Below are positions 703-18,741 of a stretch of 22,884 nt of DNA, in pieces. A program made the position numbers and the translations under genes. The stretch lies in NCBI GenBank assembly GCA_041497675.1, contig JBGQGY010000052.1:1-22884 (forward strand), in the 5' to 3' direction. The DNA comes from a bacterium (GTDB lineage: Bacteria > Sysuimicrobiota > Sysuimicrobiia > Sysuimicrobiales > Humicultoraceae). A model generated the notes under the pieces. It had not been told where the DNA came from. It worked only from the letters and a program-made list of their open reading frames with translations, and did not search any database. Position 1 is the first letter of the stretch, and the number at the start of each line of letters is the position of its first letter.

Positions 703-766
703 CGACCTTCGGCGATTTCGATGCCCGCCAGGGCATCCCTCCCAATTCGACGAACATGCCCGCACA

Positions 767-1693
767 ATGAAAATTGCGGTTATCGGCGGCGGGCCCGGTG
801 GGTTCTTCTTCGCGGTCTTGATGAAGCGGGCCGATCCCTCGCATGACATCACCGTCTTCGAGCGCAACGCGCCGGGAGCCACATTTGGGTTCGGCGTGGT
901 CTTCCCCGAGCGCTCGATGCAGTATCTGCGCGACGCCGACCCGCATGTACACGCCGCGTTCGTGCAAACCATGATCCACTGGGACGCGCTCGAGTACCGG
1001 CACCGGGGCCGCATCCTCCGGTGCGGCGGGCACGTCTTCTCAGGGATCGCCCGCATGGATCTCCTGCGGATCTTACAGACACAGGCAGGTCGGCTCGGTG
1101 TGAATCTATGCTTTCACCAAGAGATCGCTAGTCTCTCCAACATATCTGGATACGATCTCATCGTGGCGGCCGACGGCATCCACAGCCTGGCCCGCCGCGA
1201 ACTGGCGGACCGGTTCCGTCCCTCAACCGATGTCGGAAAAAGCGAATACATCTGGCTCGGAATTTCCCCAACCGTATCGTGGCCACCCAATCCCCGTTTG
1301 ACGGTGCCGGCCTGATCATTACCGATCCCGGTGCCCCGATCTTCCTGCAACGGTCGTTCCTCGCGGCATGTGGCTGCAGCTGCCCAACGCCGCCCAGAAG
1401 CCCCTCGACAACATTGAGCTGTCAAACACGGCGGTGCTCCTGTTGGATGGCATCGCCGCCGCCAATCTCGACCTCGTCGAATCTGCCCGCGCGGCGTGGC
1501 CGCCCGCGACCCTGAACGCGCACGCGAGGCGCACGCGCACGCGAGCGATCTGATCCGCAACCTGACGGGAGTGCCGACGATGCTGCTTGGCGGCGACTAC
1601 AACGTGGGTGACGTCAACGCGTTGATCCTGGCCGGTCGGGCCGATCTCTGCGAGTGGCCGCGTCTGGCCTGGTCGGGGTGGCGACCTCACTAA
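767..1693 (+). pseudogene. Eroded bifunctional salicylyl-CoA 5-hydroxylase / 2-aminobenzoyl-CoA monooxygenase-reductase (FAD monooxygenase + OYE domain) remnant
   Basis: 767-1261 reads MKIAVIGGGPGG...FERN...TFGFGVVF...DLIVAADGIHS...YIWLG and stops at 1315. OYE-domain relics follow in three other segments/frames: FPNRIV...GAGLIIT (1264+), RAAWPP (about 1490), and SDLIRNLTGVPTM...VNALILAGRADLC (to 1693). Confidence 0.8.
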
Positions 1694-2888
1694 AATCCGC
1701 CCGCTCCGCCGCGAGTGCCACCGCTGCGCCGGCGACCAGCGCCCAGAACGGTGCGGCGATCCGAAAGAGCACGAGCCCGGAGACGGTCACCAGAAATGCC
1801 GCGAGCGCCCCCAAGCGGAAACGCCCGCCGAACGCCTGCTGGAAGAACTGCGTCATGGGAGGCAACAGCGCCAGACCCCCGAGGACATCGACCAGCGCGC
1901 GCGGCACGATGCGCGTGATCGCCGTGGCAGCCGGCGCGAGCAGCCCGGTGGCAATCCATACGACCCCCAAGACGACACTGGCCGCGTAGCGACCCTGCGG
2001 CGGTCCCGACGCGGGCCCCGAGACGATCGCGGTGGACGGACCCGCCAGACACGCCGAGTGGCCCCCCGCCACCGCGGACACCACCGACCCGAGCCCCGCC
2101 GCCACCGTGAGCCCACTGACCGGCGGGCGATACCCGGCCGCCCAGAGCGCCGCGAACCCCTGGACGTTCTGCACGGCGATGACCATCAGCACCAGGGGGA
2201 TCACGAGTTCCACCGAGGCCGTGACCGAAAACGCGGGCACAACCACGTGAGGGCGCGCCAGCGTGAACGTCATGGCACTCCAGTCGGCCTGGCCGAGCAC
2301 GGTGACCGTCACCAGTCCCGCTACCAGCGCCGTCAGCACCGGTGGAACGCGCCGCAGACCCGGCACTGCCGACGTTGCGAAGAACGCCGCCACCGTCACG
2401 CCGCACAGCAGCGGCGCCTGCTGCAGACCCCTCGGGATTGCAAGCACGAAGGGCAACAGCACGCCCGCCACCATGCCCATCATGATCGGGATGGGCAACC
2501 GCGCGGTCGCGCGGCCGATAAGACCGGTCGCCCCCAGCAACAGCACCGCCGCGCCGGTGAGCCAGTAGGTGCCGACCACCTGATCGAAGGGCAGGTGCGC
2601 CAGGGCCGCGCCCACGAGCACAACGCCCGGGATCGTGTACGCGCCGACGATCGGCAGTCGGTAGCGCAGGCTGAGGACGATGCTCAACACGCCGCCGACG
2701 ACGCTAACCGACAGGATCCACGACACCGCCGCGGCCTCGGGAAGATTCGCCTGCCGGGCCGCCGACAACGTGATCAGCAACGGGCTGATATTCCACAAGC
2801 CGGCAACCGCGGCGCTGGCAACCCCGCCGGCAGTGAGCACGCGCGGAAGGTCGCGGAGGTTGCGAAGGAAGCCGGGATTGTGCGCCAT
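1614..2888 (-). CDS. benE: Benzoate/H+ symporter BenE family transporter
   Basis: About 424 aa, multi-TM; SWILS..LSLRYRLPIVGAYTIPG, MGMVAGVLLPF, QNVQGFAAL..AGYRPP, FLVTVSG...IAAPFWAL. ATG at 2888 overlaps the upstream TGA (GTG at 2891 is an alternative start). Confidence 0.85.
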   Translation of the reverse strand: MAHNPGFLRNLRDLPRVLTAGGVASAAVAGLWNISPLLITLSAARQANLPEAAAVSWILSVSVVGGVLSIVLSLRYRLPIVGAYTIPGVVLVGAALAHLPFDQVVGTYWLTGAAVLLLGATGLIGRATARLPIPIMMGMVAGVLLPFVLAIPRGLQQAPLLCGVTVAAFFATSAVPGLRRVPPVLTALVAGLVTVTVLGQADWSAMTFTLARPHVVVPAFSVTASVELVIPLVLMVIAVQNVQGFAALWAAGYRPPVSGLTVAAGLGSVVSAVAGGHSACLAGPSTAIVSGPASGPPQGRYAASVVLGVVWIATGLLAPAATAITRIVPRALVDVLGGLALLPPMTQFFQQAFGGRFRLGALAAFLVTVSGLVLFRIAAPFWALVAGAAVALAAERADFSEVATPTRPDAATRRDRPDRPGSTR

Positions 2889-3616
2889 CACAGGATGACG
2901 CTCGCCATGCCCAGCACGCCCACCAGTGCAAGATACGCGAGCACAACCGTGTCAAAGGCCTGTGGGGCGAGTCGTCCTCCCAGATACGAGCCGGTCACGA
3001 ATCCCAGCAAGACTCCCGGTGTCAACTTCCAGGCGAGTGCCATCGTTGAAGGTGAAACCGCGCCGCCGGCCGCCATGACTACGATGCTCGCCAAGGTGGC
3101 CAGGAAGACGAACGCCACCATGTTGGCGCGAAATCGGTCCTTTGGGCAACCGCGTGCAATCAGGTAGAGCACCACCGGCGGGCCGTTGAGACTCGTGCTT
3201 GTGGAGAGAAAGCCGCTCACCGCTCCCACAGTGACCACGTCGAGGCGCCCGGCCGACCGACGGGGACGCACACGGAACAACATCAGCGCCGCAAACAGCG
3301 TGGTCAGCCCGGCGACGAGCGCCTTCAGCGCGCGTGCGTCGGCGTGCTGCAGCAGCAGAAGTCCCCCCGGCATCCCGACCACACTGGCAAGACACATCGG
3401 ACGCATCAGCGTCCAGTCGATCGCCCGACGGAGGTCGGCGTGCAGCAACAGGGCGCCACTGGCAAGCAATCCGAGCAGGAGGGTCAGGACCACCACATCC
3501 CGCGGAGGGTACAGGAACGTCAGCAACGGGGTACTCAGCAGGTTGAATCCAAACCCGGTTGCCGCCGTCCCCATTGCAGATAACAGCACAATGAGAAGGG
3601 CGAGGTACTCTTGCAC
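2888..3616 (-). CDS. Sulfite exporter TauE/SafE (TSUP) family membrane protein
   Basis: 242 aa hydrophobic protein; TGFGFNLLSTPLL and GAVSGFL..STSLNGPPVVLYL internal repeat motifs. Confidence 0.88.
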   Translation of the reverse strand: MQEYLALLIVLLSAMGTAATGFGFNLLSTPLLTFLYPPRDVVVLTLLLGLLASGALLLHADLRRAIDWTLMRPMCLASVVGMPGGLLLLQHADARALKALVAGLTTLFAALMLFRVRPRRSAGRLDVVTVGAVSGFLSTSTSLNGPPVVLYLIARGCPKDRFRANMVAFVFLATLASIVVMAAGGAVSPSTMALAWKLTPGVLLGFVTGSYLGGRLAPQAFDTVVLAYLALVGVLGMASVIL

Positions 3617-3628
3617 TACATGATACCG

Positions 3629-4405
3629 TCAGGCCAACTTGTTGAACTGCGGCTTGCGCTTCTCGACGAAGGCTTTCACGCCCTCGTGTCCGTCGGGGCT
3701 GCGAAACAGACTCTCCAGCATCTCGCGCTCGATGCGTAGCGCGTCGTCTAGCGGGCGGTCGCGCCCCTGTTGCACCGCGAGCTTGATCGCGCCGATGGCG
3801 CTCGCCGCGCCGTCGACGAGCCCCTGTACGTAGGCGCGCGTCTGCGTCTCGAGTTGATCGGCTGGGAACAACCGGTCCAGAATGCCCATCGCGAAGGCGT
3901 CCTTCGGCGACAGGCGCCGTCCCGTCACCATCAGGTCCAGCGCGCGGTTCCACCCGATCAGTCGAGGCAGCCGCTGCGTGCCGCCGTTGCCGGGCAGCAG
4001 CCCGAGCGTCACCTCGGGCACGCCGAGATAATATTCGCCTTCGGCCCCGAAGCGAAGGTCGCAGGCGAGCGCGATCTCGAGTCCGCCCCCGAGGGCGTGC
4101 CCACGAATCTGCGCAACAAACACTTTGGGGATCCCCGCAATCCGGCCCAACGTTTGGTGCGCCAGCCGGCACATCGCCATGTTTTGATCGGCCGAGTTCT
4201 CGCTGAACGCCTTGATGTCCGCGCCCCCACAAAAGAACCGGTCGAGGGCGCTGCGCACGATCACAGCCCTGGCAGCGCCGTCGGCAGCCGCCGCATTGAT
4301 GGCCGTCTGTAACTCGTCCATGAACCCGTAATCATAACTGTTCGCAGGTGGGCGGTTGAGCGTAATGAGTCCAATCGCGTCCTCACGTGCGTACTCGACC
4401 GGCAT
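3629..4405 (-). CDS. Enoyl-CoA hydratase/isomerase (crotonase) family protein, BoxC N-domain-like; candidate ring-cleaving epoxide/oxepin-CoA hydrolase
   Basis: LNRPPANSYD, FCGGADI, GHALGGGLEIALACDLR, PEVTLGLLPGNGGTQRLPR, EGVKAFVEKRKP. Both crotonase Glu residues present. GGAGG RBS. Confidence 0.92.
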   Translation of the reverse strand: MPVEYAREDAIGLITLNRPPANSYDYGFMDELQTAINAAAADGAARAVIVRSALDRFFCGGADIKAFSENSADQNMAMCRLAHQTLGRIAGIPKVFVAQIRGHALGGGLEIALACDLRFGAEGEYYLGVPEVTLGLLPGNGGTQRLPRLIGWNRALDLMVTGRRLSPKDAFAMGILDRLFPADQLETQTRAYVQGLVDGAASAIGAIKLAVQQGRDRPLDDALRIEREMLESLFRSPDGHEGVKAFVEKRKPQFNKLA

Positions 4406-4414
4406 GGCAGCCTC

Positions 4415-5866
4415 CTACTCTAGATCTCCGACCACAACCGACTTCGGCTCCACGTAGTAGTCCATCGCCTCGGGCCCGTGCTCGCGCCCGATCCCCGACG
4501 CTTTGACGCCTCCAAAAGGCAGTTCATCATACCCGTAGTGGATCTGGTTCACCCAGGTCATCCCGGCCTCCAGATCCTGCGCGGCCTTGTAGATCCATCG
4601 GACATTGTATGTCCAAATCGACGATCCCAGACCGTAGATCGAATCGTTGGCCATCGCAATCGCGTCGTCTATCCCCTTCACCTTGAAGACCGGCAGCAGC
4701 GGGCCAAACGTCTCTTCCTTGACGGCGCGGCTGTCGTGCGGCGCCCCCTCGATCACCGTCGGGGTGAAGAAGAAGCCGCGATGGCGTCCCTCGGGCACGC
4801 GGCCGCCGTAAGCGATGCGCGCGCCGCGGCCGACGGCGTCCTGGATCTGGTCGATGATCTCCTGGCGCTGCCCCGCGGAATGGATCGGCCCCACGCGGAT
4901 CTTGGGCCGCTCGGCCTTCACCCAGCCTTCGCCAGGTTCGTACCGCGCCACGCCGGCCAGCAGTTTTTCCATGAACTTATCGTAGACGTCCTCGAACACA
5001 TATAACCGTTTACATGCGAGACATGCTTGCCCCATATTCCAGAACCGCCCAATGAGCACGCCGCGCACCGCCTTGTCCAAATCCGCATCGGAACAGACGA
5101 TGGTCGGATCGGACCCGCCCAGCTCGAGGGTGATGCGTTTGAACTGCGGGCCGGCCACCTCCATGATCCGGCGACCGGTGCCGCTTTCACCCGTGAAGGC
5201 GACACGGCGCACGTCTGGATGCGCCGCCAGCGCCTCGCCGACCACGCGGCCAGGCCCCGTGATCACGTTGAGCACGCCCGGCGGCAGACCGCCTTCATTG
5301 AGCAGGGCGATCACCCGCAGCGTCGCCAGCGGCGTGGTGCTCGCGGGTTTCACGACAACGGTGTTTCCTGCCGAGAGCGCCGGACCGATCTTCGTGCCCA
5401 TCAGCGTCAGCGGGAAGTTCCACGGGACGATTGCCGCGCACACGCCGATCGGCCGAGGGATGACCATTCCATAGGCCTTGCCCAATGAGGACGGTAGTGC
5501 AGTATACGCGCCGCGCATCTTGCTGGCCAGTTCGGTGTAAAACTCCACGCCGTGGACGAAGTGGTTGATCTCGCCCAGCGCTTCGTGCATGGGCTTGCCC
5601 TGCTCGCGCACGAGCAGATCGGCGACCTCCTGCACCGCCGCACGTACTTTCGCCAGACCCTCGCGGATCTTGTGCGCGCGCTCTTCGGCGTCGGTCTTCG
5701 CCCAACCGGGAAACGCCTTGCGCGCGGCTGCCACCGCGGCGTCGACGTCCTCGGGCCCGGCCTTTGGCACCGAATCGACCACTTCTTCGGTCGCCGGATT
5801 GATGACGGGCATCTGCGCGCCCGACTTCGCCGCGACCGCCTCGCCGTTGATCAACTGCATCGCCAT
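4415..5866 (-). CDS. NAD(P)-dependent aldehyde dehydrogenase (candidate ring-cleavage semialdehyde-CoA dehydrogenase)
   Basis: PWNFP, KPASTTP, FTGE..TG, LELGG, GQAC catalytic Cys, EETFGP, PFGGVKASGIGRE. GGAGG RBS. Confidence 0.95.
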   Translation of the reverse strand: MAMQLINGEAVAAKSGAQMPVINPATEEVVDSVPKAGPEDVDAAVAAARKAFPGWAKTDAEERAHKIREGLAKVRAAVQEVADLLVREQGKPMHEALGEINHFVHGVEFYTELASKMRGAYTALPSSLGKAYGMVIPRPIGVCAAIVPWNFPLTLMGTKIGPALSAGNTVVVKPASTTPLATLRVIALLNEGGLPPGVLNVITGPGRVVGEALAAHPDVRRVAFTGESGTGRRIMEVAGPQFKRITLELGGSDPTIVCSDADLDKAVRGVLIGRFWNMGQACLACKRLYVFEDVYDKFMEKLLAGVARYEPGEGWVKAERPKIRVGPIHSAGQRQEIIDQIQDAVGRGARIAYGGRVPEGRHRGFFFTPTVIEGAPHDSRAVKEETFGPLLPVFKVKGIDDAIAMANDSIYGLGSSIWTYNVRWIYKAAQDLEAGMTWVNQIHYGYDELPFGGVKASGIGREHGPEAMDYYVEPKSVVVGDLE

Positions 5867-5879
5867 GATGTCCCCTCCG

Positions 5880-6065
5880 CTATTTCCGTATCCGCTCGAA
5901 CGGGCTCTTGCAGGCCAGACACATATACTGTTCGGACATCAACTGCGCCCCAAAGGCCGCGATACGCTCCACGCGCGCAGACCCGCACCAGGGGCACAGG
6001 AGGACGTCTCTGTCCCCGCTTACGCGGTCGTCGCGGCGTCCAGGCGGCGTTGGAGTTGATTCCAT
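5880..6065 (-). CDS. Stand-alone PaaD C-terminal zinc-ribbon protein
   Basis: CPWCGS...FGAQLMSEQYMCLACKSPFERIRK resembles the PaaD C-terminus (CPxCxS..FG..YxCxxCxEPFxxxK). Start uncertain (ATG 6065 or GTG 6074, both within the paaC 3' end). Confidence 0.78.
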   Translation of the reverse strand: MESTPTPPGRRDDRVSGDRDVLLCPWCGSARVERIAAFGAQLMSEQYMCLACKSPFERIRK

Positions 6066-6796
6066 CGATCCCACGGCAGGTCGTCATACTCCCAGGCGCC
6101 GGCTTCTAAGTTCCACCGCACCGGGAGCCTCACGCCGACTTCCAGCAGCAGGGGCGCCACGCGCACCAGATACCGCTGTCGAAGGTCTTCATTGGCCCGG
6201 CTCAAGATGCCCTCGGCAACGAGCGCCTCGACGCCAGCTTCCCCGGGAGGCCCAAACCAACACAGCATCTCCGGCAGCACTTCATCCACACGTCGCTGGA
6301 GCGCCGAGGCCCCCTGCGGCGTGGCGACGATGCGGCGGGTCAGGCTCTCGGCATAGCCCATGTGCGAGCGCTCTTCTTCCAGCGCGCGGCGGATGCGGCT
6401 CGCCAGCGACTCGAACCGCGCGTCGGCCAGCGCGTCGAACATGGTGTTCACGGCGGTGTCGATCAGCACGCAGGCCGCCACCACGTGGGACCAGCTTGGG
6501 AAGGGCCGATCGAGAAACACGGCGCTGTAGCGGCGCTCGCGGTCGCCCTCACGCTCGAGCGGCACCGGGTGGTTGGGCCAGGGCAGCTCTTCGAGCAACG
6601 GATAAATGGCGCGCGAGTGGCCGAGTTCTTCCTGCGCGATCGCGGCGCAGGCAACCGCGGCCTCGAGAAACGGCGCGCCCGGCGCCCACTCCGAGATCCG
6701 TCGTCCCAAGAAGTATTTGGTATCGGCCAGGACCACGATGAGATTGACCAGGGGCCCGAGCGCCCGCTCGTGCATCGAGACGGTGGCCTTGCTCAC
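6020..6796 (-). CDS. paaC: Aryl-CoA epoxidase structural subunit, PaaC-like (ferritin-like PaaA/PaaC family)
   Basis: LADTKYFLGRRISEWAPGAPFLE, QEELGHSR, EEERSH, WFG. GTG start overlaps the upstream TGA. Confidence 0.82.
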   Translation of the reverse strand: MSKATVSMHERALGPLVNLIVVLADTKYFLGRRISEWAPGAPFLEAAVACAAIAQEELGHSRAIYPLLEELPWPNHPVPLEREGDRERRYSAVFLDRPFPSWSHVVAACVLIDTAVNTMFDALADARFESLASRIRRALEEERSHMGYAESLTRRIVATPQGASALQRRVDEVLPEMLCWFGPPGEAGVEALVAEGILSRANEDLRQRYLVRVAPLLLEVGVRLPVRWNLEAGAWEYDDLPWDRWNQLQRRLDAATTA

Positions 6797-7005
6797 GGCT
6801 GCGGCTCGATGACCCAGTGGACCGACCCCGCCGGCGCCAGCACCATCTCCAGCCAGTCGCCGCCGAATCGCTGCGTGGCCAGCGCGGCCGGCTCCTCGCC
6901 CGAGCCAACCGCGATGATGCCCTGATAGGCCAACGATTCGGTGTAGGCCCGGCGGGCGAGCACCAGAAACCGGCGCGAACGTGGGTCCACGGCGGCGGGT
7001 CCCAT
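6793..7005 (-). CDS. Second PaaB-like small protein (70 aa)
   Basis: ATG at 7005 overlaps the upstream TGA. FLVLARRAYTESLAYQGII...WLEMVLAP...WVIEP aligns by eye with the adjacent PaaB-like YEVFAARAEGAEPVKNVGAV...WKEMFVIP...HVIRP. Confidence 0.65.
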   Translation of the reverse strand: MGPAAVDPRSRRFLVLARRAYTESLAYQGIIAVGSGEEPAALATQRFGGDWLEMVLAPAGSVHWVIEPQP

Positions 7006-7202
7006 CAGGCGGGCCGGATGACGTGGATCAGCGCGCTGCGGGGGATGACAAACATCTCTTTCCAGCGCCACTCATCGTAGAGTTTGTGCGCGAAGATCGC
7101 CGCCTCGCGCGAACTGCGGGCGCGGACCGCGCCCACGTTCTTGACCGGCTCCGCCCCTTCGGCCCGCGCCGCAAACACCTCATAGATCTCTTCGCCCTGC
7201 AC
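7005..7202 (-). CDS. paaB: PaaB-like small subunit of aryl-CoA epoxidase (65 aa)
   Basis: YEVF...VGAVRA...A...Y...FVIP pattern of PaaB. GTG start directly abuts the paaD TAA. Confidence 0.75.
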   Translation of the reverse strand: MQGEEIYEVFAARAEGAEPVKNVGAVRARSSREAAIFAHKLYDEWRWKEMFVIPRSALIHVIRPA

Positions 7203-7514
7203 TTAGACCACCCCGACCCCGCGTAGCTGTTTCCATCCCTCTGCGCTGATGTGCTCGCGAGTCCAGGGTTCCCACACGATCTCGATCACGACCCGCTCGA
7301 CGCCCGGCAGAGCGCGCAGACGCTCGCGGATGTCGTCCTGGATCATCTCCATGCACGGACAGCCCATCGACGTGTACGTCATGCGCACGCGTACTGTCGA
7401 GCCCTTAACCTCGACCCCGCGGATAAGTCCCAGATCAACGATGTTCACTGGATACTCGGGGTCGAGGATCTCATGCAGCGCTGCGTGGATGACGGCCTCG
7501 TCCAGGTCAGACAT
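7203..7514 (-). CDS. paaD: PaaD N-terminal domain / DUF59 (metal-sulfur cluster assembly factor)
   Basis: Start ATG at 7514 overlaps the paaA stop. LHEILDPEYPVNIVDLGLI, TYTSMGCPC, WEPWT motifs; 103 aa, lacks the zinc ribbon. Confidence 0.85.
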   Translation of the reverse strand: MSDLDEAVIHAALHEILDPEYPVNIVDLGLIRGVEVKGSTVRVRMTYTSMGCPCMEMIQDDIRERLRALPGVERVVIEIVWEPWTREHISAEGWKQLRGVGVV

Positions 7515-8442
7515 CAGCGTGTCGTCCCAGTTCCTTGTAGCCCCGCTGGATCTGATCGATGAACTCTCGGTTCGCGGGCCCGCGCTGCTTCCACCGAACC
7601 AGCACGTCATCCCAGGTGATCGCCCCTTGGTCCAGCAACCAGCGTTTCTGCCGCTCATCAAACCTGGCCGGGAACGGGCACGTGATCACCCACTCGTTGC
7701 GCTCGGCGGCGTGGCGCGCCGGCACGGTGAGCCCGACCTCCTGACACAATGGTACGGCCGTCGACATCCACTGCTGCCGCAACTGATCGTTGGTGTAGCC
7801 CTTGAGGCCGTACCCGATCTGTTCTTTGTGCCGCTTCAGGGTGTCGGGCAGGCCGAACCACTCGACCGTGAGCAAGAACATCCAGTCGACCGCATGCTGT
7901 AGGTCGGCCTTCCCCTGCGGATCCTGCGACAGCGTCCGCATCCACTTCTCGCCGTGGCGCAGGTGGAAGTTCTCCTCCCGGTCGACCTTCGCCAGCGCCC
8001 GCTTCCATGGTCCGTAGGACGTGTGCCGGAAGATATCGCCGAGTAACAAGAAACCTGCGCGATCGTAAAAGGCGTTGGCGACCACCAGTTCCGTCCAGGA
8101 GTCAAGCGGGACGTCAAACGCATACGGGTGCTTGAAGTCCTTGGGGTCGCGCTCGTAGACGAGGGTGTCCGTGTCGACGCCCAGGTCGCGCAGCATCCGG
8201 TAGGCGATGTGCGCATGTCCCAGTTCGTCCTGGATGATCCCGGTGGCGGAGATGTAACTGTTGATGCTCGGGGCGTCGCGCGCCGCGCGCAGGTAGGACG
8301 GCGCGCTGATCAGCTCGGTGTCCGCCGAGACAATCAGCGTCCGCTTGAGGGCATCGATGTATGGCTGCGTGGCGTATTCGGGGCCCTCGACCAGGTCGCC
8401 CCTCGCAATCCGCGCCAGCAGAGCCTCTTCTGTGACTGCCAT
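7507..8442 (-). CDS. paaA: Aryl-CoA ring epoxidase catalytic di-iron subunit, PaaA-like
   Basis: 311 aa; full carboxylate di-iron ligand set (DTE, DELGH, YDRAG, EENFH); TSYGPW, TNDQLRQQW. AGAGGAG RBS. Confidence 0.88.
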   Translation of the reverse strand: MAVTEEALLARIARGDLVEGPEYATQPYIDALKRTLIVSADTELISAPSYLRAARDAPSINSYISATGIIQDELGHAHIAYRMLRDLGVDTDTLVYERDPKDFKHPYAFDVPLDSWTELVVANAFYDRAGFLLLGDIFRHTSYGPWKRALAKVDREENFHLRHGEKWMRTLSQDPQGKADLQHAVDWMFLLTVEWFGLPDTLKRHKEQIGYGLKGYTNDQLRQQWMSTAVPLCQEVGLTVPARHAAERNEWVITCPFPARFDERQKRWLLDQGAITWDDVLVRWKQRGPANREFIDQIQRGYKELGRHADV

Positions 8443-8509: not shown

Positions 8510-9406
8510 TCACGGCCGCCGCAACCGCGCCGCCGCTTCGACCAGGCCGCCGGGCAGCACGATCACCACCAGGATGAAAAGAATCCCGAAGATCAGGAGG
8601 TGCAGTTCCACCAGCGACCGCGCCAGGACTTCTCGCACCAGGACATAGAACAGCGCGCCCACGATCGGCCCCACCAGGGTCCCGACGCCCCCGATGAACG
8701 CGATGAGCAGCGCGTCAAAGGTCCAGGTGGGCGCAAACGGCAGCTGATGATAATAGCTAACGTGGTAGAAGGCAAACAACCCGCCGGCCAGCCCGGCAAA
8801 CGTGGTGCTGACCGCCAGGGCGATGAGCTTGTGTCGCAGCGCGTCGACCCCCGTGGCCTCCGCGGCGTCTTCGTCCTCGCGCAGCGCCTGCATCCCCAGA
8901 CCTATGCGCGAATGCACCAGCAGCCAGAGCGCCGCGACGGTGATGACGGCGAGCGCGAATGCGAGATAGTACCGGGTCGTCAGCGTGTAGCCGGAGATGT
9001 AGGACTCCGGGAGGGTCGAGACCACCGGCAACACGTTGCCCACCGTGATTCTCAAGATTTCCGCCAGCCCCAGCGTGCCGATGGCGAAGTAGGCGCCGCG
9101 CAGGCGAAACGCCGGCACGCCGATGATCAGGCCGAACAGACAGGCCAGGGCGCCTCCGGCCAGCATGCCGGCGATCGGGGAGACACCGGCAATCCACAGG
9201 TGCCGCGTCACGAAGGCGCCGATGCCGAAAAACGCGGCGTGCCCCAGGTTGATCTGACCGGCGTAGCCGGCCAGCATGTTCCACGACTGCGCGAGCGTCA
9301 CATAGAGGAACACCAGCACGCCGAGGTTCAAGATGTCGGCGCGGGTGGTCACCGCCGGCAGCAGGGCCAGGGCGGCGAGCGCGCCGATCACCGCTGCGCG
9401 TCTCAT
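8510..9406 (-). CDS. livM: Branched-chain amino acid-type ABC transporter permease (LivM)
   Basis: WNMLAGYAGQINLGHAAFFGIGA, LRGAYFAIGTL, REDEDAAEATGVD, IGGVGTLVGPIVGA. Confidence 0.93.
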   Translation of the reverse strand: MRRAAVIGALAALALLPAVTTRADILNLGVLVFLYVTLAQSWNMLAGYAGQINLGHAAFFGIGAFVTRHLWIAGVSPIAGMLAGGALACLFGLIIGVPAFRLRGAYFAIGTLGLAEILRITVGNVLPVVSTLPESYISGYTLTTRYYLAFALAVITVAALWLLVHSRIGLGMQALREDEDAAEATGVDALRHKLIALAVSTTFAGLAGGLFAFYHVSYYHQLPFAPTWTFDALLIAFIGGVGTLVGPIVGALFYVLVREVLARSLVELHLLIFGILFILVVIVLPGGLVEAAARLRRP

Positions 9407-10266
9407 CGCCCGAACAGCCCTTGCGGCCGAATCATGAGGACGAGCAGGAAAAGCACTAAGGAGACGACTTCACGGTAGGCGCTGCCCAAGACCAGCGCGC
9501 TGCACGCTTCGGCGAGCCCCAGCAGCAGCCCGGCGAGGAACGTCCCCGGCATGCTGCCCAACCCGGCCAGCACCACCACGATCAGCGCCTTTATCGTCCA
9601 CTCTGGGCCGATCGAGGGGTTGATGGAATACCCGACGCTGATCAGCGTCCCCGCCACCCCGGCGAGCGCGCTGCCGAGCGCAAAGGCGATCAGGTACATC
9701 CGCCGGACGTCGATGCCAGCGAGCAGGGCGGCTTCCCAATCCTCGGCGACTGCGCGGATCGCGCGCCCCGGGTAGGAATGACGCAGAAACAGGTGCGCGG
9801 CGACGATGACCACCACCGCAACCCCCAGCGCGCCCAGCCGAACCCAGGGGAAGACCAGGCCGCGCACTATCAGCACGGCGCCCGAGTAGGCCGTAGGGAT
9901 CGAGCGCTCATCGGCGGTCCACAGACGAACCGCCAGGTTGTGAAACGCCAATGCGAGGCCGAACCCGAGCAGCAGCGAGTTCTTGATCCGGGGTTCTTCG
10001 TCGAGTGTCTCGACGTGCGTAAAGATGCCCTGATGGACGCCCAATCCGATCACAAACATCAGCGGCGCGGTGATCACCAGCGACAGAAACGGATCCACGC
10101 CAAAACTGGCGAAGAGCCAGAAGGACGCATACCCGCCGATCATGATCAGCTCGCCGTGCGCCACGTTGAGCACGCGCAACACGCCAAACACCAGCGACAG
10201 CCCGGCCGCGGCCAGACCGTACAGCGCGCCGGTGAGCAGGCCAAAAATCAGGTTCTGCGCCACCAT
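9403..10266 (-). CDS. livH: Branched-chain amino acid-type ABC transporter permease (LivH)
   Basis: Start MVAQNLIFG at 10266; GLSLVFGVLRVLNVAHGE, GRAIRAVAED, LAGLGS, RPQGLFG. Confidence 0.93.
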   Translation of the reverse strand: MVAQNLIFGLLTGALYGLAAAGLSLVFGVLRVLNVAHGELIMIGGYASFWLFASFGVDPFLSLVITAPLMFVIGLGVHQGIFTHVETLDEEPRIKNSLLLGFGLALAFHNLAVRLWTADERSIPTAYSGAVLIVRGLVFPWVRLGALGVAVVVIVAAHLFLRHSYPGRAIRAVAEDWEAALLAGIDVRRMYLIAFALGSALAGVAGTLISVGYSINPSIGPEWTIKALIVVVLAGLGSMPGTFLAGLLLGLAEACSALVLGSAYREVVSLVLFLLVLMIRPQGLFGR

Positions 10267-10273
10267 CAGGGAC

Positions 10274-10990
10274 TCACCGCGCCGAAAAGTAGTCGAGAAA
10301 CGCGCTCTGCACCCGCGCATCGCGGAGCAGTTCTTGACTGGTCCCGGCACCGGTGATGCGCCCGCCTTCCAACAGATAGGCGCGTTGCGCCAGGTCGAGG
10401 GCCGACCGGACGTTCTGCTCCACGAGCAGGACGGTGACGCCCTCGGCATTGATCTGTCTGATCACGGCAAAGATGCGGCGCGCCGCGAGCGGCGCGAGTC
10501 CCAGCGACGGCTCGTCGAGCAGCAGGATCGTGGGGCGTCCCATCAGCGCCCGCCCGATGGCCAGCATCTGCTGCTCACCGCCCGACAGTGTGCCCGCCAC
10601 CTGGTGGCGCCGCTCGGCGAGCACCGGAAACATGTCGAAGATCCGTTGCTGCGTCTGCTCTCGCTCGGCGCGGGCGCGCGGCGTGAAGGCGCCGAGCAGC
10701 AGATTCTCGAGCACGCTCATACCCGAGAAGAGGCGGCGGCCCTCGGGCACCAGCGCGATGCCGTGTTCGACGATCCGGTGGGCCGGCTCGCGGTGCAACG
10801 GCCGGCCGTCGAACGTCACCGTCCCCGACGCGGGACGGCGCAACCCCGCGATCGTCCGTAAGAGCGTGCTCTTGCCGGCGCCGTTTGGGCCGAGCAGCGC
10901 GACGACCTCACGGGGCTCGACGCGGACGGATACCTGCCACAGCACCTGCAGGTCACCGTAGAACACGTCGATCCCGGCGACGTCAAGCAT
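10274..10990 (-). CDS. livF: ABC transporter ATP-binding protein (LivF)
   Basis: Walker A GPNGAGKS, VPEGRRLF, LSGGEQQMLAIGRALM, LLLDEPSLGLAP, LVEQN. Confidence 0.95.
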   Translation of the reverse strand: MLDVAGIDVFYGDLQVLWQVSVRVEPREVVALLGPNGAGKSTLLRTIAGLRRPASGTVTFDGRPLHREPAHRIVEHGIALVPEGRRLFSGMSVLENLLLGAFTPRARAEREQTQQRIFDMFPVLAERRHQVAGTLSGGEQQMLAIGRALMGRPTILLLDEPSLGLAPLAARRIFAVIRQINAEGVTVLLVEQNVRSALDLAQRAYLLEGGRITGAGTSQELLRDARVQSAFLDYFSAR

Positions 10991-11711
10991 CGTCGCCGGT
11001 CCCCAGATACGCCTCGATCACGCGTGGATCGCGCGAGATGACCCCGGGCGGCCCCTGAGCGATCGACTGTCCGGCGTTGAGCACCAGGATGCGGTCGGAG
11101 AGTCCCAACACGGCCTTGACCAGGTGCTCGATCATAATGATGGTGCACCCGGCGTCACGGATGCCGCGGATCATGACCATCGCGGCCTCGACTTCCTGCG
11201 GTGTGAGACCGGCCATGAACTCATCGAGCAACAACAGCCGCGGCCGCGTGGCCAGCGCCCGGGCCAGCTCCACCCGCTTGCGCTCGACGAGTGTCAGTTG
11301 CCTGGCCGGGACGCGGTCCTTCCCGCGCAATCCCACGGCGGCCAGGATCTCCCCGGCTTCGGCCTCGGCCGACCTCCGCGTGGCGCTGCGCTCGCGGCCG
11401 TACAACCGGCCGACCATCGCGTTCTCCAGCGCCGTCAGGTGCGCGAATGGCCTGACCAATTGAAATGTTCTCGCGATCCCCCTGACGCAAATGGCGTGAG
11501 GCCGGAGGCGCGTGATCTCTTTGCCGTCCAGATGGATGTGACCGGCGTCCGGGGTGATGAATCCGGTGATGAGGTTGAAGGCCGTGGTCTTCCCCGACCC
11601 GTTGGGTCCGATCAGGCCGAGAATCTCGCCCTGCTCTACCGTAAAGCTCAGGTCTTTGACCGCCGCCAGGCCGCCAAAGCGCCTGGTCAGCCCTTCGACC
11701 TCGAGAATCAT
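10983..11711 (-). CDS. livG: ABC transporter ATP-binding protein (LivG)
   Basis: FGGLAAV, GPNGSGKTT, GIARTFQ, LLLDE, IEH, DPRVIEAYLG. Confidence 0.95.
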   Translation of the reverse strand: MILEVEGLTRRFGGLAAVKDLSFTVEQGEILGLIGPNGSGKTTAFNLITGFITPDAGHIHLDGKEITRLRPHAICVRGIARTFQLVRPFAHLTALENAMVGRLYGRERSATRRSAEAEAGEILAAVGLRGKDRVPARQLTLVERKRVELARALATRPRLLLLDEFMAGLTPQEVEAAMVMIRGIRDAGCTIIMIEHLVKAVLGLSDRILVLNAGQSIAQGPPGVISRDPRVIEAYLGTGDDA

Positions 11712-12088
11712 TTGTACCGGCCCAGTTTCTCCAGGGCGGAGAGCACGAACCGATCGTCCACCACCAGGCTCAGGTTCACTTTTCGGGGGACGAACCCGTT
11801 CTTCTCGTACCAGTCCTGGTCGAAGCGCAGGCTTTGGCGATTGACGGCGCCGTTGGGATCGAGCCAGGGCATGATCATCTTGTTCGCCATCGCCGCCGGC
11901 ATGTCGGGGAACGCCATGGTCACGACTTCGACGTCGTCCAGCGTGAGGTTGCCGCGGGCGGCCAGCGCGATCTTCAACCCTTTGAGATCGGCCCGGGTCT
12001 TGAACCGGCCGCTGTCCACCAGGTCGCGGCGGATGACCAGCCCCTCATAACTGTAGCCGGTTCGAATCGGATCTTGTCCAATGGCCAT
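11708..12088 (-). pseudogene. Internally deleted NitT/TauT (NMT1/SsuA-like) ABC substrate-binding protein remnant, 126 aa open frame
   Basis: GYSYEGLVIRRDLVDSGRFKTRADLKGLKIA, LTLDDVEVVTMAFPDMPAAMANK and PWLDPNGAVNRQSLRFDQDWY...VVDDRFV..ALEKLGRYK are non-contiguous blocks of a roughly 330-aa SBP family. No signal peptide. GAGG RBS; stop overlaps livG ATG. Confidence 0.7.
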
Positions 12089-12114
12089 CCCGCCTCGGAG
12101 CGGCCGCCGTGCGG

Positions 12115-13329
12115 CTAGCGCTGTTCCCACGCCGGCGCCGGAAACTGGAACGGCGCGGTCGCGAACTCTTTGGGCCAGACCAGCTCCTGCTTGCCTCGTT
12201 GCCACTGGAGGAACACGACCGTGACCACGCCGGTGCCATCTGCCCGGAAGCGTACCTGGCCTTCCACAGTCATCATGTTGGTCGCGGCCATCGCGTCGCG
12301 GATCTTCGCGCGGTCCAGCGTACCGGCGCGCGCGATCGCGTCGGCCAGGATCTGGACGGCGGCGTACGAGGGCCCGGTGAGCACATCACCGGGGCGTCCA
12401 AACGCACGCTGGTGCTTGTCATTCAGTTCTTTCACGCCGGGGAACCGCATGGCGTTGTGCCAGCCGGGCGCCAGCATGACGTAGTCGCCGTCCTTGCCCA
12501 GGTTCTGGCTCCACACCACGGCGTCGGCCGCGCGGATGAGCATGTACATCTTGGCGTTGAACGCCAACTGCTTCATCTGGCGGACTAGGTTCAACCCGTC
12601 CGGCGGCGTGGGGACACCGAACACGGCCTCGGCACCGGCGGCTTTGGCGCGCAGGATGTTGTCCGAGAAGTCGCGCGCGCCGATCGCGTACTCTTCAATG
12701 GCGACGGCGCTATAGCCGAACTCCTTCGCGCGCGTCGCCCACAGCCCGCCAATTTCCTCGCCCCAGTCGGTCCGTTCCTTGAAGATGGCGATCCGCTTCG
12801 GCCGCTGCGCATCGGGGAGCGTCCCGTTCAAGAATAGGTAGGTTTCCTTGACAAGGTCGGGGGATTTCGGGAATGGGCTGAATAGATATTTGAAGCCCTG
12901 CTGGTGGATCTTGTGTAGGGCGAACGCCACGCCGAGGTAGGGGACCTTGTTCTTCTCGGCGATTGACGCGGCCGCGGCGTGCAGGTCGCTGCCAAACCCA
13001 CCCAGATAGGCTGTGACCCGATCGCTCGCGAACAGCGTCTCGAGCCTGGCCACGGTCTTAATGGGGTCGGACTCGTCATCCAGCAGGACCAGTGCCAGCG
13101 GCAGCTTCTTATTGAACTCCGGCACCATCACGCCGCCGGCGCGGTTGATGTCCTCGATCGCAAACTCGTAGCCGGCCTTCACCTGCGCGCCGCCCGCCGC
13201 GTAGCGTCCGGTCAGGGGCACCACTGCGCCCACCTTGATGCTCAAGGGCGCCTGCGCCACGCTCGGACTCGCGCCCAGTGTCATCCATGCCAGCACGGCG
13301 ACGATCACCAGCGCGATCACTGTCTTCAT
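12115..13329 (-). CDS. LivK-type (PBP1) ABC substrate-binding protein, probably for an aromatic acid
   Basis: Signal peptide MKTVIALVIVAVLAWMTLGASPSVAQA; IKVGAVVPLTGRYA, INRAGG, DDESDP, QWQRGKQELVWP. Confidence 0.9.
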   Translation of the reverse strand: MKTVIALVIVAVLAWMTLGASPSVAQAPLSIKVGAVVPLTGRYAAGGAQVKAGYEFAIEDINRAGGVMVPEFNKKLPLALVLLDDESDPIKTVARLETLFASDRVTAYLGGFGSDLHAAAASIAEKNKVPYLGVAFALHKIHQQGFKYLFSPFPKSPDLVKETYLFLNGTLPDAQRPKRIAIFKERTDWGEEIGGLWATRAKEFGYSAVAIEEYAIGARDFSDNILRAKAAGAEAVFGVPTPPDGLNLVRQMKQLAFNAKMYMLIRAADAVVWSQNLGKDGDYVMLAPGWHNAMRFPGVKELNDKHQRAFGRPGDVLTGPSYAAVQILADAIARAGTLDRAKIRDAMAATNMMTVEGQVRFRADGTGVVTVVFLQWQRGKQELVWPKEFATAPFQFPAPAWEQR

Positions 13330-13341
13330 CTGGTTTCCCCC

Positions 13342-13488
13342 CTAGTCGATCCTGGACTCGTCGCGATACATCACGCGTGCGCGTTCGTTTCTGATCCACT
13401 CATCGATCTGTTCGTCGGTCGGCCCATTGGCCGGAGTGAACCGGCTGACCCACCACACGCTGTAGCCGAGCGCCGCCGCGGGTGGCAT
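13342..13488 (-). CDS. Small hypothetical protein (48 aa)
   Basis: Manual translation MPPAAALGYSVWWVSRFTPANGPTDEQIDEWIRNERARVMYRDESRID*. ATG overlaps the ligase TGA and TAG abuts the livK RBS. Below the ORF-track size cutoff. Confidence 0.5.
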   Translation of the reverse strand: MPPAAALGYSVWWVSRFTPANGPTDEQIDEWIRNERARVMYRDESRID

Positions 13489-14831: not shown

Positions 14832-14844
14832 CCGGCGGATATCC

Positions 14845-18239: not shown

Positions 18240-18240
18240 G

Positions 18241-18741
18241 CTAGCGCCCCCCGCCCGGCGTCCCGTTGCCGTTGCGCGCGCGGGCGGCCGCCAGTTCGAC
18301 GGCCTCGAAGATCTTCACGTATCCGGTGCACCGGCAGAGATTGCCCGCCAGCGCCTGCGCGATCCGCTCCCGCGTGGGATCGGGCTCCGCGTCGAGCAGC
18401 GCCTTGGCCGCCAGGAGAATCCCCGGCGTGCAATACCCGCACTGCGCCGCGCCAAGCTCGGTGAAGGTCATCTGTAGGTGGTGCGGCCGGCTCCCCTCCG
18501 CCAAACCTTCGACCGTCGTGATCTCGCGATTCTGCACCTCGACCGGCAGCGTCAGACACGAGAGCCACGGCTCGCCATCGATCAGCACCGTGCATGTGCC
18601 GCACTCGCCGAGCTCGCAGCCATGTTTGGTCCCGGTGAGGTTCATCTCTTCGCGCAAGACTTCGAGCAGCGTCTTGTGGATGGGCGCCGCAACTTCGTGG
18701 GTCTCCCCGTTCACGCGCAGCGTGAGCAGCGTCTTGGGCAT
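18241..18741 (-). CDS. hcrC: 2x[2Fe-2S] small subunit (HcrC/CoxS type)
   Basis: GTKHGCELGECGTCTV..SCL, QCGYCTPG, NLCRCTGY. ATG at 18741 overlaps the iclR TAA. Confidence 0.9.
   Translation of the reverse strand: MPKTLLTLRVNGETHEVAAPIHKTLLEVLREEMNLTGTKHGCELGECGTCTVLIDGEPWLSCLTLPVEVQNREITTVEGLAEGSRPHHLQMTFTELGAAQCGYCTPGILLAAKALLDAEPDPTRERIAQALAGNLCRCTGYVKIFEAVELAAARARNGNGTPGGGR

Follow-up and report, generated by a model that had tools for sequence, protein, structure and literature searches.

The single-domain crotonase ECH1, encoded in a stretch of 22,884 nucleotides analysed at its full length (the window), was read with moderate confidence as the putative hydrolase that opens the ring in an undescribed pathway of the Paa type acting on benzoyl-CoA-like substrates. 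Since its gene travelled with a divergent epoxidase and an aldehyde dehydrogenase (ALDH), the probable role of ECH1 is to open the ring of a benzoate-type CoA ester once that ring has been oxidised; its reaction and substrate were deduced from observed sequence features, conservation, linkage and co-occurrence. The substrate would most likely be benzoyl-CoA or a close ring-substituted analogue, made by a ligase of the benzoate-CoA-ligase or PaaK family and, in the window's own genome, also through an Hcr-like dehydroxylating reductase. The PaaA' complex would epoxidise the aryl-CoA ring to an epoxide or oxepin product, which ECH1 would hydrate, opening the ring to a CoA-bound semialdehyde. The ALDH encoded 9 nt upstream would oxidise this semialdehyde, and the product would be handed to PaaG/F/H/J-type enzymes encoded elsewhere.

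Table 1. Features of the window, with positions, strand and family scores.
Feature	Position	Strand	Details
BenE-family benzoate transporter	1614..2891	minus	overlaps TauE stop; PF03594 238.1 bits
TauE/SafE-family membrane protein	2888..3616	minus	PF01925 104.2 bits; start 12 nt past ECH1 stop
ECH1	3629..4405	minus	258 aa, ATG at 4405, stop at 3629; single-domain crotonase
Aldehyde dehydrogenase (ALDH)	4415..5866	minus	483 aa; Pfam Aldedh 518.8 bits
PaaC-like subunit (PaaC') of divergent epoxidase	6020..6796	minus	PF05138 117.2 bits; TIGR02158 79.8 bits, below cut-off 133.35
Small ORF	6793..7071	minus	C-terminal ~57 aa conserved, PaaB-like
PaaB-like ORF	7005..7202	minus	65 aa, GTG start at 7202; outside the list of ORFs of at least 80 aa
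DUF59/PaaD-like protein	7203..7661	minus	PF01883 76.7 bits; paad_haloarch 87.7 bits, below cut-off
PaaA-like catalytic diiron subunit (PaaA')	7507..8442	minus	PF05138 200.3 bits; TIGR02156 106.1 bits, cut-off 280
ABC uptake system, Liv/Urt type	8510..13329	minus	two permeases, two ATPases, solute-binding protein
PaaK-family aryl-acid CoA ligase (PaaK')	13488..14873	minus	34% identical to E. coli PaaK
Three-subunit molybdenum enzyme, closest to 4-hydroxybenzoyl-CoA reductase (Hcr-like)	14845..18786	minus	
Hcr-like beta subunit	14845..15858	minus	
Hcr-like alpha subunit	15858..18239	minus	
Hcr-like gamma subunit	18241..18786	minus	
IclR-family regulator	18741..19580	minus	

The ECH_1 domain (PF00378) covered residues 8-255 of ECH1 (186.4 bits; gathering score 27), and the motifs FFCGGADI, GGGLE and PE together with the crotonase fold placed the protein among enoyl-CoA hydratase-type crotonases. 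The AF2 model had a pLDDT of 86.6. The catalytic pair was E110 and E131 and the signatures were NSY and RS; the motifs quoted in the first-pass annotation (PANSYDYGFMDELQTAINAAAA, VIVRSALDRFFCGGADI, NMAMCRLAHQT, GGGLE and VPE) were all exact matches in the translation. N22-S23-Y24, R51-S52, E110 and E131 were invariant across 37 aligned orthologues, hand-picked among the 120 matches listed. At the equivalent columns of 80 generic crotonases neither NSY (NSF in 3) nor RS occurred (0/80 each). The two-Glu pattern was non-discriminating, because it was common to PaaF and to 46 of the 80 generic crotonases, and both cysteines were clade-specific, most orthologues having FFS for FFC and MI or LV for MC. 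Cluster proteins from cultured Rubrobacter and from MAGs with the labels Armatimonadota, Actinomycetota and Firmicutes were 65-97% identical, and on sequence grounds ECH1 is a member of a distinct, highly conserved orthologous group.

The stop codon of ALDH and the ATG of ECH1 were 9 nt apart in the window, with GGAGG between them, and all loci having ALDH upstream (14/14) had a gap of 9-42 nt that contained a GGAGG-type site. Orthologues of the ALDH (66-98% identical) immediately preceded ECH1 in 11 of 12 loci, and a BenE homologue was downstream of it in 6 of 12 and also in L124. The gene order PaaA'-D'-B'-C'-ALDH-ECH1 was common to the window, L007-L018, L121, L124 and L126. In L119 and L120 the order was BCL-ECH1-(PaaX-like, GNAT)-PaaA'-D'-B'-C'-CoA-transferase-ALDH, ECH1 adjoining the ligase and not ALDH; the linkage of ECH1 with PaaA' persists through rearrangement. 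One protein of 738 aa (P0423) was an in-frame fusion of an ALDH (60% identical to that of the window) and an ECH1-like domain (56%), and may reflect a stop-codon sequencing error because it formed a one-member cluster. Four further candidates for ALDH+ECH fusions (P0425, P0426, P0427 and P0431) were rejected; Arg-rich out-of-frame stretches parted their halves, and they looked like frame-shifted run-throughs. A search for longer proteins returned ALDH fusions only and no double-crotonase form of ECH1.

The PaaA' subunit retained both E-x-x-H motifs and was 25% identical to E. coli PaaA. The 65-aa PaaB-like ORF had counterparts (48-77% identical) in L119-L121, L124 and L126. The true start of the PaaD-like protein is probably later than listed, because conservation was limited to the last ~95 aa and the long ORF overlaps PaaA'. 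All three Hcr-like subunits scored below cut-off (TIGR03194 888.8/994.55, TIGR03195 274.3/404.55 and TIGR03193 180.3/257.8 bits), and the beta subunit had four cysteines at 124/140/148/157. The BenE-family protein was also below cut-off on TIGR00843 (190.8 vs 203.4 bits).

In a phylum-level set of 94 genomes related to that of the window, 35 had ECH1 (E<=1e-70), 34 had PaaA' (E<=1e-60), 33 had both and 58 lacked both, so that 33 of the 34 PaaA' genomes had ECH1; these genomes are related, and hence the counts are not independent. In 25 of the 33, ECH1 and PaaA' were on one contig and at most 4.2 kb apart, and in the remaining 8 they were split over short contigs. Canonical PaaA was present in 62 of the 94 genomes. 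ECH1 was in 1 of the 36 genomes with canonical PaaA but no PaaA', vs all 8 of those with PaaA' only. Members of the ECH1 group obligately accompany this second, divergent diiron aryl-CoA epoxidase of the PaaA/PaaC type; the same co-occurrence would be expected of any dedicated pathway step.

The first-pass annotation had proposed a half-size BoxC analogue, possibly a minimal ring-cleaving hydrolase, with benzoyl-CoA as the substrate of the epoxidase. The BoxC motifs that it cited were real: three reference BoxC proteins (976-990 bits on TIGR03222) read LNSYDLGVDIEL.DA, RVFC[AS]GANI and KVNFCKFTNET. NSYD and (R)S were common to ECH1 and BoxC and invariant in the ECH1 group, and E110 and E131 aligned with the GGGYE and LPE motifs of BoxC. 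The 'FC' Cys was not conserved in the ECH1 group, ECH1 had D where BoxC has N in the second motif, its second Cys (NMAMC) fell outside the BoxC Cys column in the MAFFT alignment, and the third BoxC motif was unaligned. Identity between ECH1 and BoxC was 27-36% over 134-201 aa. From sequence, the resemblance is judged to be beyond chance, because NSY and RS were invariant in the group, present in BoxC and absent from the 80 generic crotonases. ECH1 and the BoxC N-domain had the same best match among solved structures, 2PPY, with 216.5 and 80.1 bits, respectively (the next match of the BoxC N-domain having 62). That ECH1 is a true BoxC lacking the C-terminal domain would agree with these shared features, and was nevertheless extremely unlikely. 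On the BoxC model TIGR03222, ECH1 scored 53.9 bits vs a cut-off of 712.3, over model positions 42-174 of 548 only, and ordinary crotonases of other genomes scored up to 65.1 bits. Unlike BoxC, with its two tandem crotonase domains, ECH1 had one, flanked by ALDH and the TauE protein and complete with the full C-terminal helical region of a single-domain crotonase. The own genome had no BoxB. Family membership was consequently abandoned, but ring cleavage on a benzoyl-CoA-type substrate remained the best-supported reading, through the partnership with PaaA' and ALDH and the gene context. The BoxC structure 2W3P was outside the 60 best sequence and 50 best fold matches of ECH1 in the PDB (Foldseek, VIA-align); for the fold, this means no more than that many single-domain crotonases are a closer fit. 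Against a set of 5.8 billion proteins, only truncated BoxC fragments were among the matches of the BoxC N-domain.

Two quick trees with SH-aLRT support only were built, Tree 1 on 82 of 165 rows (the first 30 representatives and every fourth of the remainder, with 9 redundant family/ECH2 rows dropped) and Tree 2 on 79 hand-picked rows; AU tests were run in IQ-TREE (LG+F+G4) on 43 of the 79 rows. Clustering with PaaF was the outcome that the earlier annotation had set against its own proposal. A clade of ECH1 with PaaF was rejected (AU p = 0.016), and the PaaF clade (support 98; Tree 2) and the PaaG clade (support 96-97; Trees 1 and 2) both left ECH1 out. In the free ML tree, the BoxC N-domain fell inside the NSY clade, joined to P0160, P0151 and P0134 and not to the ECH1 family. 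The BoxC N-domain was adjacent to the ECH1 clade in the ML solution, but it shifted to FadB-type N-domains once these were added (Tree 2), and this alternative was not significantly worse (p-AU 0.39). The placement of BoxC in the trees is unstable.

From its gene surroundings, ECH1 is more likely to act on benzoyl-CoA-type substrates than on phenylacetyl-CoA: benzoate-CoA-ligase-family genes adjoined the cluster in five lineages, the window had the Hcr-like reductase and BenE, and a separate canonical PaaABCD was encoded elsewhere in the own genome. Genes of the TIGR02262 benzoate-CoA-ligase family (533-678 bits; cut-off 375) flanked the cluster in R. marinus, G067, G085, G099 and G009. The canonical PaaABCD of the own genome (388.7 bits) was on contig C96, and a PaaK 51% identical to that of E. 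coli was on another contig than PaaK'. The PaaK-family ligase of the window and the PaaX-like regulator of L119 would suggest a phenylacetate-like substrate. Searches of the own genome (98.6% complete) and of 3 Rubrobacter genomes gave no match to BoxB (TIGR03225), BcrB or the AOR family (BamB type); the BcrB search had a positive control, and the control for BoxB gave 894 bits, beside BoxC in Hydrogenophaga. A literature search, from which subscription journals were mostly outside coverage, returned neither a PaaA-type enzyme acting on benzoyl-CoA nor the ECH1 cluster.

The main rival, considered rather unlikely, assigned ECH1 to the beta-oxidation-like lower part of the pathway as a plain (S)-specific enoyl-CoA hydratase, analogous to PaaF and acting on 2,3-dehydroadipyl-CoA or similar, with the ring opened by a MaoC protein, by a second crotonase (ECH2) or spontaneously. 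By sequence, the catalytic residues of ECH1, with the full two-Glu set, are indistinguishable from those found in plain hydratases; its top family matches were 'enoyl-CoA hydratase' models (PRK07658, 203.5 bits), its nearest characterised relatives were hydratases (5ZAI 3-hydroxypropionyl-CoA dehydratase, LiuC), and its best match among the named references was E. coli PaaF (33% over 250 aa, 134 bits). Better PaaF candidates were encoded elsewhere: on NF007239 (cut-off 371) ECH1 had 150 bits, and in each of 4 genomes it had 149-156 bits vs 223-333 for another gene, so that by this score ECH1 is the best PaaF candidate in 0/4 genomes. L121 had a separate crotonase adjoining a 3-hydroxyacyl-CoA dehydrogenase. 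Other candidates to open the ring existed in part of the set. MaoC hydratases (47% identical to the C-domain of PaaZ) were encoded separately on contig C105 and, with a second ALDH, within the same island as the ECH1 cluster in G009, and the Rubrobacter clusters had ECH2. Nonetheless, a PaaZ-type MaoC hydratase was present in 12 of the 34 PaaA' genomes and, with the query used, absent from 22, and in the stretches of 14-17 kb fetched for L119 and L120 ECH1 was the sole match to two crotonase queries (ECH1 and Rubrobacter ECH2), with no match to the MaoC query. The tight coupling of ECH1 to ALDH, with one fusion, and the rejected PaaF clade also argue against a plain hydratase. An assignment of the MaoC protein on C105 to the canonical phenylacetate pathway was dropped; MaoC was in 15 of the 62 genomes having canonical PaaA vs 12 of the 34 with PaaA', tracking neither PaaA type.

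Crotonases are able to combine isomerase and hydratase activities, and ECH1 might take the role of PaaG, as an isomerase or as isomerase plus hydratase converting the epoxide to the oxepin and/or 3,4- to 2,3-dehydroadipyl-CoA. No PaaG-type gene was matched by the queries in the window cluster or in the L119 and L120 stretches, which would leave room for such a role. It was judged improbable from the residues and scores: PaaG has a catalytic Asp in IPD[CS]GG, whereas ECH1 reads LLPGNGG, with G-N there, and keeps both glutamates, a pattern that the first-pass annotation had correctly denied to PaaG as far as the E. coli protein goes. ECH1 scored 130.6 bits on TIGR02280 (PaaG; cut-off 345) and stood outside the PaaG clade, the own genome had a PaaG (49% identical to that of E. 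coli), and the Rubrobacter clusters had their own PaaG-clade paralogue next to ECH1. Even less probable was that ECH1 and ALDH are a split replacement of PaaZ in the canonical phenylacetate pathway. The own genome did have the canonical PaaABCD, PaaK and PaaG/F/H/J, and fused PaaZ was not found in it; the linkage of ECH1 was nevertheless with PaaA' each time and never with the canonical cluster on C96, and its near-absence from genomes with canonical PaaA only also spoke for the divergent epoxidase as its partner. Ring opening after PaaA' is the reading retained for ECH1.

Two aerobic pathways are known that open the ring hydrolytically after CoA-ester formation and epoxidation, Paa for phenylacetate and Box for benzoate. 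It is tentatively proposed that PaaA'B'C'D', ECH1 and ALDH could constitute a third aerobic 'CoA-epoxide' route beside them. Benzoyl-CoA would be dearomatised by a Paa-type epoxidase and its ring opened by a single-domain cousin of the BoxC N-domain (a minimal BoxC), in Rubrobacter and in poorly cultured lineages having benzoate-CoA ligases without BoxAB, Bcr or Bam; in the lineage of the window, an Hcr-type 4-hydroxybenzoyl-CoA reductase, at work alongside an O2-dependent enzyme, would supply the route. The cluster would thereby combine Paa and Box logic, with a Paa-type oxygenase, BoxC-like crotonase chemistry and benzoate-type ligases. If true, this would account for the fate of benzoyl-CoA in genomes with benzoate-CoA ligases but with none of the benzoyl-CoA dearomatising enzymes searched for, would offer a small hydrolase that opens the ring with one domain and whose mechanism could be compared with that of BoxC, and would correct the blanket annotation 'enoyl-CoA hydratase/carnithine racemase'.

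Among solved structures, enoyl-CoA hydratase GK1992 of Geobacillus kaustophilus (2PPY) was ~40% identical to ECH1 (Foldseek 42%) and was its best relative by Foldseek and VIA-align (Z 29.7, rmsd 2.6 over 250 residues); in the PDB search, no other single-domain protein came as close to the BoxC N-domain. A literature search with subscription journals mostly outside its coverage returned no published function for 2PPY/GK1992. PaaF resembled ECH1 as a single-domain, two-Glu crotonase of similar length, but had NAL and TG where ECH1 has NSY and RS, and the own genome had a closer PaaF homologue elsewhere. The crotonase-family protein H281DRAFT_04594 of Paraburkholderia bryophila is, according to Price et al. 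2022 (PMC9007349), an alternative oxepin-CoA hydrolase proposed to replace the hydratase of PaaZ where ALDH is a separate protein, and is described there as lacking the catalytic residues (S118, M135). ECH1, in contrast, retained both glutamates. On NF046063 'oxepin_alt', which bears the product name of H281DRAFT_04594 and was presumably built on that protein, ECH1 scored 126.4 bits vs a cut-off of 300.

The ring-opening step in phenylacetate catabolism belongs to the hot-dog hydratase domain of PaaZ, and BoxC does the same job in Box, as the dihydrolase that turns 2,3-epoxybenzoyl-CoA into 3,4-dehydroadipyl-CoA semialdehyde and formate. The C-terminal (R)-hydratase of PaaZ adds water to open an oxygenated ring and passes the semialdehyde to an ALDH, as would ECH1. 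PaaZ joins its ALDH and hydratase in one protein; the ECH1 gene lay 9-42 nt after that of ALDH, and the two were fused in P0423. The folds differed, the PaaZ hydratase being a MaoC hot-dog (PF01575-type) and ECH1 a crotonase, and the ALDH of the window was ~25% identical to the ALDH part of PaaZ and ~28% identical to the ALDH beside the Hydrogenophaga box genes. BoxC is described in PMC4498308 as a protein of ~550 aa that consists of two crotonase domains, with catalysis confined to the N-terminal one and its two catalytic glutamates. The oxygenase partner of BoxC is BoxAB, whereas that of ECH1 was of the PaaA/C type. Like ECH1, BoxC has the crotonase fold, two glutamates in the hydratase positions and the NSYD and (R)S signatures, with an ALDH next in the pathway and a benzoate-CoA ligase encoded nearby, and the role proposed for ECH1, hydrolytic opening of an epoxidised aryl-CoA ring, would be BoxC-like.

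Among 94 genomes forming the window's phylum-level set, the 258-aa crotonase ECH1 was present in 35 and PaaA', the divergent PaaA-type epoxidase subunit, in 34; 33 genomes had both and 58 had neither. ECH1 occurred without PaaA' in G027 and G042, and PaaA' without ECH1 in G082 (64% complete). With the unpublished G032 left out, the counts were 34, 33 and 32 (ECH1, PaaA' and both) of 93. Canonical PaaA was present in 62 genomes; ECH1 was found in 1 of the 36 genomes with canonical PaaA only and in all 8 with PaaA' only. A PaaZ-type MaoC hydratase was encoded in 12 of the 34 PaaA' genomes and in 10 of the remaining 60. Of the 33 genomes encoding ECH1 and PaaA' together, 25 had the two genes on one contig, at most 4.2 kb apart.

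Close ECH1 homologues formed at least 120 clusters at 65-97% identity; their sources were MAGs bearing the labels Armatimonadota, Actinomycetota and Firmicutes, together with 'bacterium HR24', Rubrobacter taiwanensis and R. marinus. Twelve orthologous loci were compared (L007-L018). Eleven had the aldehyde dehydrogenase gene (ALDH) immediately upstream of ECH1, and the twelfth began inside ECH1; PaaC' was found in 11 and PaaA' in 9, the remaining contigs being too short. The ALDH-ECH1 gap was 9-42 nt (14/14 loci). One 738-aa protein (P0423) joined an ALDH (60% identical to that of the window) and an ECH1-like domain (56%) in one reading frame, a fusion to be taken with caution as a one-member cluster. 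In another family of the same order (L119, L120; 14-17 kb fetched), the order was benzoate-CoA ligase (BCL)-ECH1-(PaaX-like, GNAT)-PaaA'D'B'C'-CoA-transferase-ALDH, ECH1 being the sole crotonase matched by two crotonase queries; the ECH1-epoxidase linkage therefore outlasts rearrangement. Rubrobacter clusters additionally had ECH2, a paralogue of the PaaG clade, as well as a PaaY-like gene, and in R. marinus a BCL (595.8 bits) was upstream. Three Rubrobacter genomes encoded PaaA' but not the canonical PaaA. All five ligase genes beside clusters exceeded the TIGR02262 cut-off (533-678 bits), with a similarity to the R. marinus BCL about that of genuine box-cluster ligases (47.5-47.8%). Metagenome crotonases 39-45% identical to ECH1 (P0428-P0434) included several with a PF05157 domain fused at the N-terminus. 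The Amidohydro_2 family, one gene of which lies in the R. marinus cluster, includes hydroxybenzoate decarboxylases and lactonases.

In the window, the genes from IclR to BenE were all on the minus strand, in the order IclR regulator, molybdenum enzyme of three subunits, most similar to 4-hydroxybenzoyl-CoA reductase (Hcr), PaaK-family ligase, ABC importer, PaaA' with a DUF59/PaaD-like protein and a pair of small PaaB-like ORFs, PaaC', ALDH, ECH1, TauE and BenE. Nine nucleotides, including GGAGG, separated the ALDH stop from the ECH1 start. All three molybdenum enzyme subunits scored below cut-off (alpha, 888.8 bits vs 994.55). A [4Fe-4S] loop separates Hcr from the rest of the xanthine oxidase family, and the four Cys of the FAD (beta) subunit presumably correspond to it; this subunit aligned continuously on the HcrB model and in two stretches on XdhB models. 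The Hcr-like enzyme with its putative extra loop is encoded alongside an O2-dependent epoxidase. Both PaaB-like ORFs were kept in relatives (48-82% identity) and may form a hetero-pair replacing the PaaB homodimer. The 208-aa ORF on the plus strand represents either an N-terminal fragment or a short FAD-binding protein that stands alone; locus L007, 96%-related, retains a counterpart (74% identity).

Location of ECH1 and of other features noted (window coordinates unless a fetched locus, L, is named)
Feature	Location	Strand	Remarks
ECH1	3629-4405	-	ATG at 4405, stop at 3629
Hcr-like FAD subunit	14845-15858	-	Cys 124, 140, 148, 157
PaaB-like ORFs, tandem	7005-7202; 6793-7071	-	between DUF59 gene and PaaC'; one 65 aa, missing from the list of ORFs of >=80 aa, the other made up by the C-terminal ~57 aa of 'orf92', which are conserved
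208-aa ORF	689-1315	+	bifunctional salicylyl-CoA 5-hydroxylase model NF006101, 190.9 bits, positions 1-168 of 768 only
Canonical PaaA-B-C-D, then PF12831 FAD-dependent oxidoreductase (333.7 bits)	L101:1106-5080		contig C96
Third crotonase	L102:6117-7073	-	contig C38; adjoins PaaF/PaaG/PaaH/PaaJ
ECH2 (Rubrobacter)	L010:7116-8006; L011:7059-7952		between PaaC' and PaaY-like gene; clusters with PaaG (96*-97*); IPSHGG at PaaG catalytic-Asp site (IPD[CS]GG), GAGTQ at first Glu position, FRE at second
Amidohydro_2 gene (R. marinus)	L011:2806-3666		PF04909, 139.3 bits; between BCL and PaaA'
PaaX-like regulator (three PaaX domains); GNAT acetyltransferase	L119:8224-9354; 7346-8425	-	divergent, between ECH1 and PaaA'

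The source assembly (98.6% complete, 272 contigs) carried canonical PaaABCD on another contig, C96 (PaaA 388.7 bits vs 280), which makes PaaA' (25% identity to E. coli PaaA) a second, divergent system. The canonical PaaD C-terminus matched the small haloarchaeal 'PaaE' model. PaaK was on C7 and PaaG/F/H/J on C38, where the third crotonase resembled BadI/MenB in its active-site residues (GGGNE, HVG) and carried a zinc-ribbon tail at its C-terminus. Searches of this assembly found no PaaE (TIGR02160), BoxB or BcrB and no member of the AOR family (BamB type). Contig C105 held an ALDH paralogue (53% identical), CoA-transferase-like genes, a thiolase, a benzoate-CoA-ligase-family gene (595 bits vs 375) and a MaoC hydratase (47% identity to the PaaZ C-domain). 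In the near-complete relative G009, a module of this type was directly upstream of IclR-Hcr-PaaK'-ABC-PaaA'...ALDH-ECH1-BenE, in a single island.

ECH1 matched Pfam ECH_1 over residues 8-255 (186.4 bits), and its translation contained all the strings quoted in the first-pass annotation. No curated NCBIfam model attained its cut-off: PRK07658 'enoyl-CoA hydratase' gave 203.5 bits (cut-off 313), PaaF 150 (371), PaaG 130.6 (345) and 'oxepin-CoA hydrolase, alternative type' 126.4 (300). An AlphaFold2 model from 37 orthologues (pLDDT 86.6) predicted a standard single-domain crotonase. Foldseek and VIA-align both ranked 2PPY (GK1992 of Geobacillus kaustophilus) as its top match, with 42% identity and with Z 29.7 and rmsd 2.6 across 250 residues, followed by the 3-hydroxypropionyl-CoA dehydratase 5ZAI and further hydratases.

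The first-pass annotation had stated the motifs of the 2,3-epoxybenzoyl-CoA dihydrolase BoxC correctly, as judged from three bona fide BoxC proteins, which scored 976-990 bits on TIGR03222 and were used as references with E. coli PaaF and PaaG. On the same model ECH1 scored 53.9 bits (cut-off 712.3), over positions 42-174 only, and ordinary crotonases from five proteobacterial genomes reached up to 65.1, 55.2 and 49.3 bits. By BLASTP, ECH1 was 27-36% identical to the three BoxC (134-201 aa aligned, 62-69 bits) and 33% to E. coli PaaF (250 aa, 134 bits). Because of this low model score, matched by ordinary crotonases, and of the BLASTP values, ECH1 falls outside the BoxC family; of the proposed half-size BoxC, family membership was lost and a resemblance kept. 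N22-S23-Y24, R51-S52, E110 and E131 were invariant across the 37 orthologues, in which the two Cys pointed out earlier were not conserved. NSY(D) and (R)S were found again in BoxC and in none of 80 generic crotonases (from loci L019-L086 and L106-L118); judged by these signatures, the resemblance is not due to chance. Against the PDB, the top non-BoxC match of the BoxC N-domain was 2PPY (80.1 bits), followed by FadB/trifunctional-type domains (62), 5ZAI (59.6) and PaaF (38.9), and the two best matches of ECH1 were 2PPY (216.5) and 5ZAI (177.9); this reciprocal search supports a real ECH1-BoxC kinship.

In a quick tree (82 rows), the long BoxC branch lay within a 40-row clade (SH-aLRT 94) comprising the ECH1 family along with the representatives nearest to it, with PaaF and PaaG outside. 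With FadB-type N-domains and other generic crotonases included (79 rows), BoxC shifted to the FadB-type domains (SH-aLRT 86), and the ECH1 family kept its own clade, separate from those of PaaF (98*) and PaaG (97*). With IQ-TREE (LG+F+G4, 43 rows, 259 columns), the tree constrained to BoxC plus the NSY clade (crotonases with the N-S-Y signature, ECH1 family included) was the free tree, in which BoxC grouped with the representatives P0160, P0151 and P0134 rather than with the ECH1 family. Joining BoxC with FadB-type domains cost 7.3 lnL and was not rejected (p-AU 0.39); joining the NSY and PaaF clades cost 54.9 lnL and was rejected (p-AU 0.016). The phylogeny proposed earlier thus set ECH1 apart from PaaF, ruling out a PaaF-type hydratase. 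On these alignments ECH1 is part of a separate and uncharacterised clade, which may have given rise to the BoxC N-domain.

With somewhat better than even probability, judging from sequence features and gene associations, ECH1 would be a ring-opening, water-adding enzyme acting after PaaA'B'C'D'; these features and associations are what is shown, and from them its reaction, its substrate and a release of formate, if any, are inferred. Uptake of an aromatic acid would go through BenE and the ABC system, and a ligase of the BCL or PaaK family would activate it; the Hcr-like enzyme of this lineage would dehydroxylate 4-hydroxybenzoyl-CoA. After ring epoxidation by PaaA'B'C'D', ECH1 would hydrate the conjugated epoxide or its oxepin tautomer, via two Glu and the oxyanion hole, and the hemiacetal product would collapse, opening the ring. 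ALDH would trap the semialdehyde, and PaaG/F/H/J-type enzymes would complete degradation. The main rival, a hydratase dedicated to the pathway but chemically ordinary, is rather unlikely.

A literature search, mainly of journals open without subscription, found no paper on a PaaA-type epoxidase for benzoyl-CoA or on the ECH1 gene cluster. As a ring-opening enzyme, ECH1 would resemble in action the PaaZ hydratase domain and BoxC, although it is of neither family. ECH1 is unlike the alternative oxepin-CoA hydrolase of crotonase type put forward by Price et al., which is reported to lack the catalytic residues (PMC9007349).
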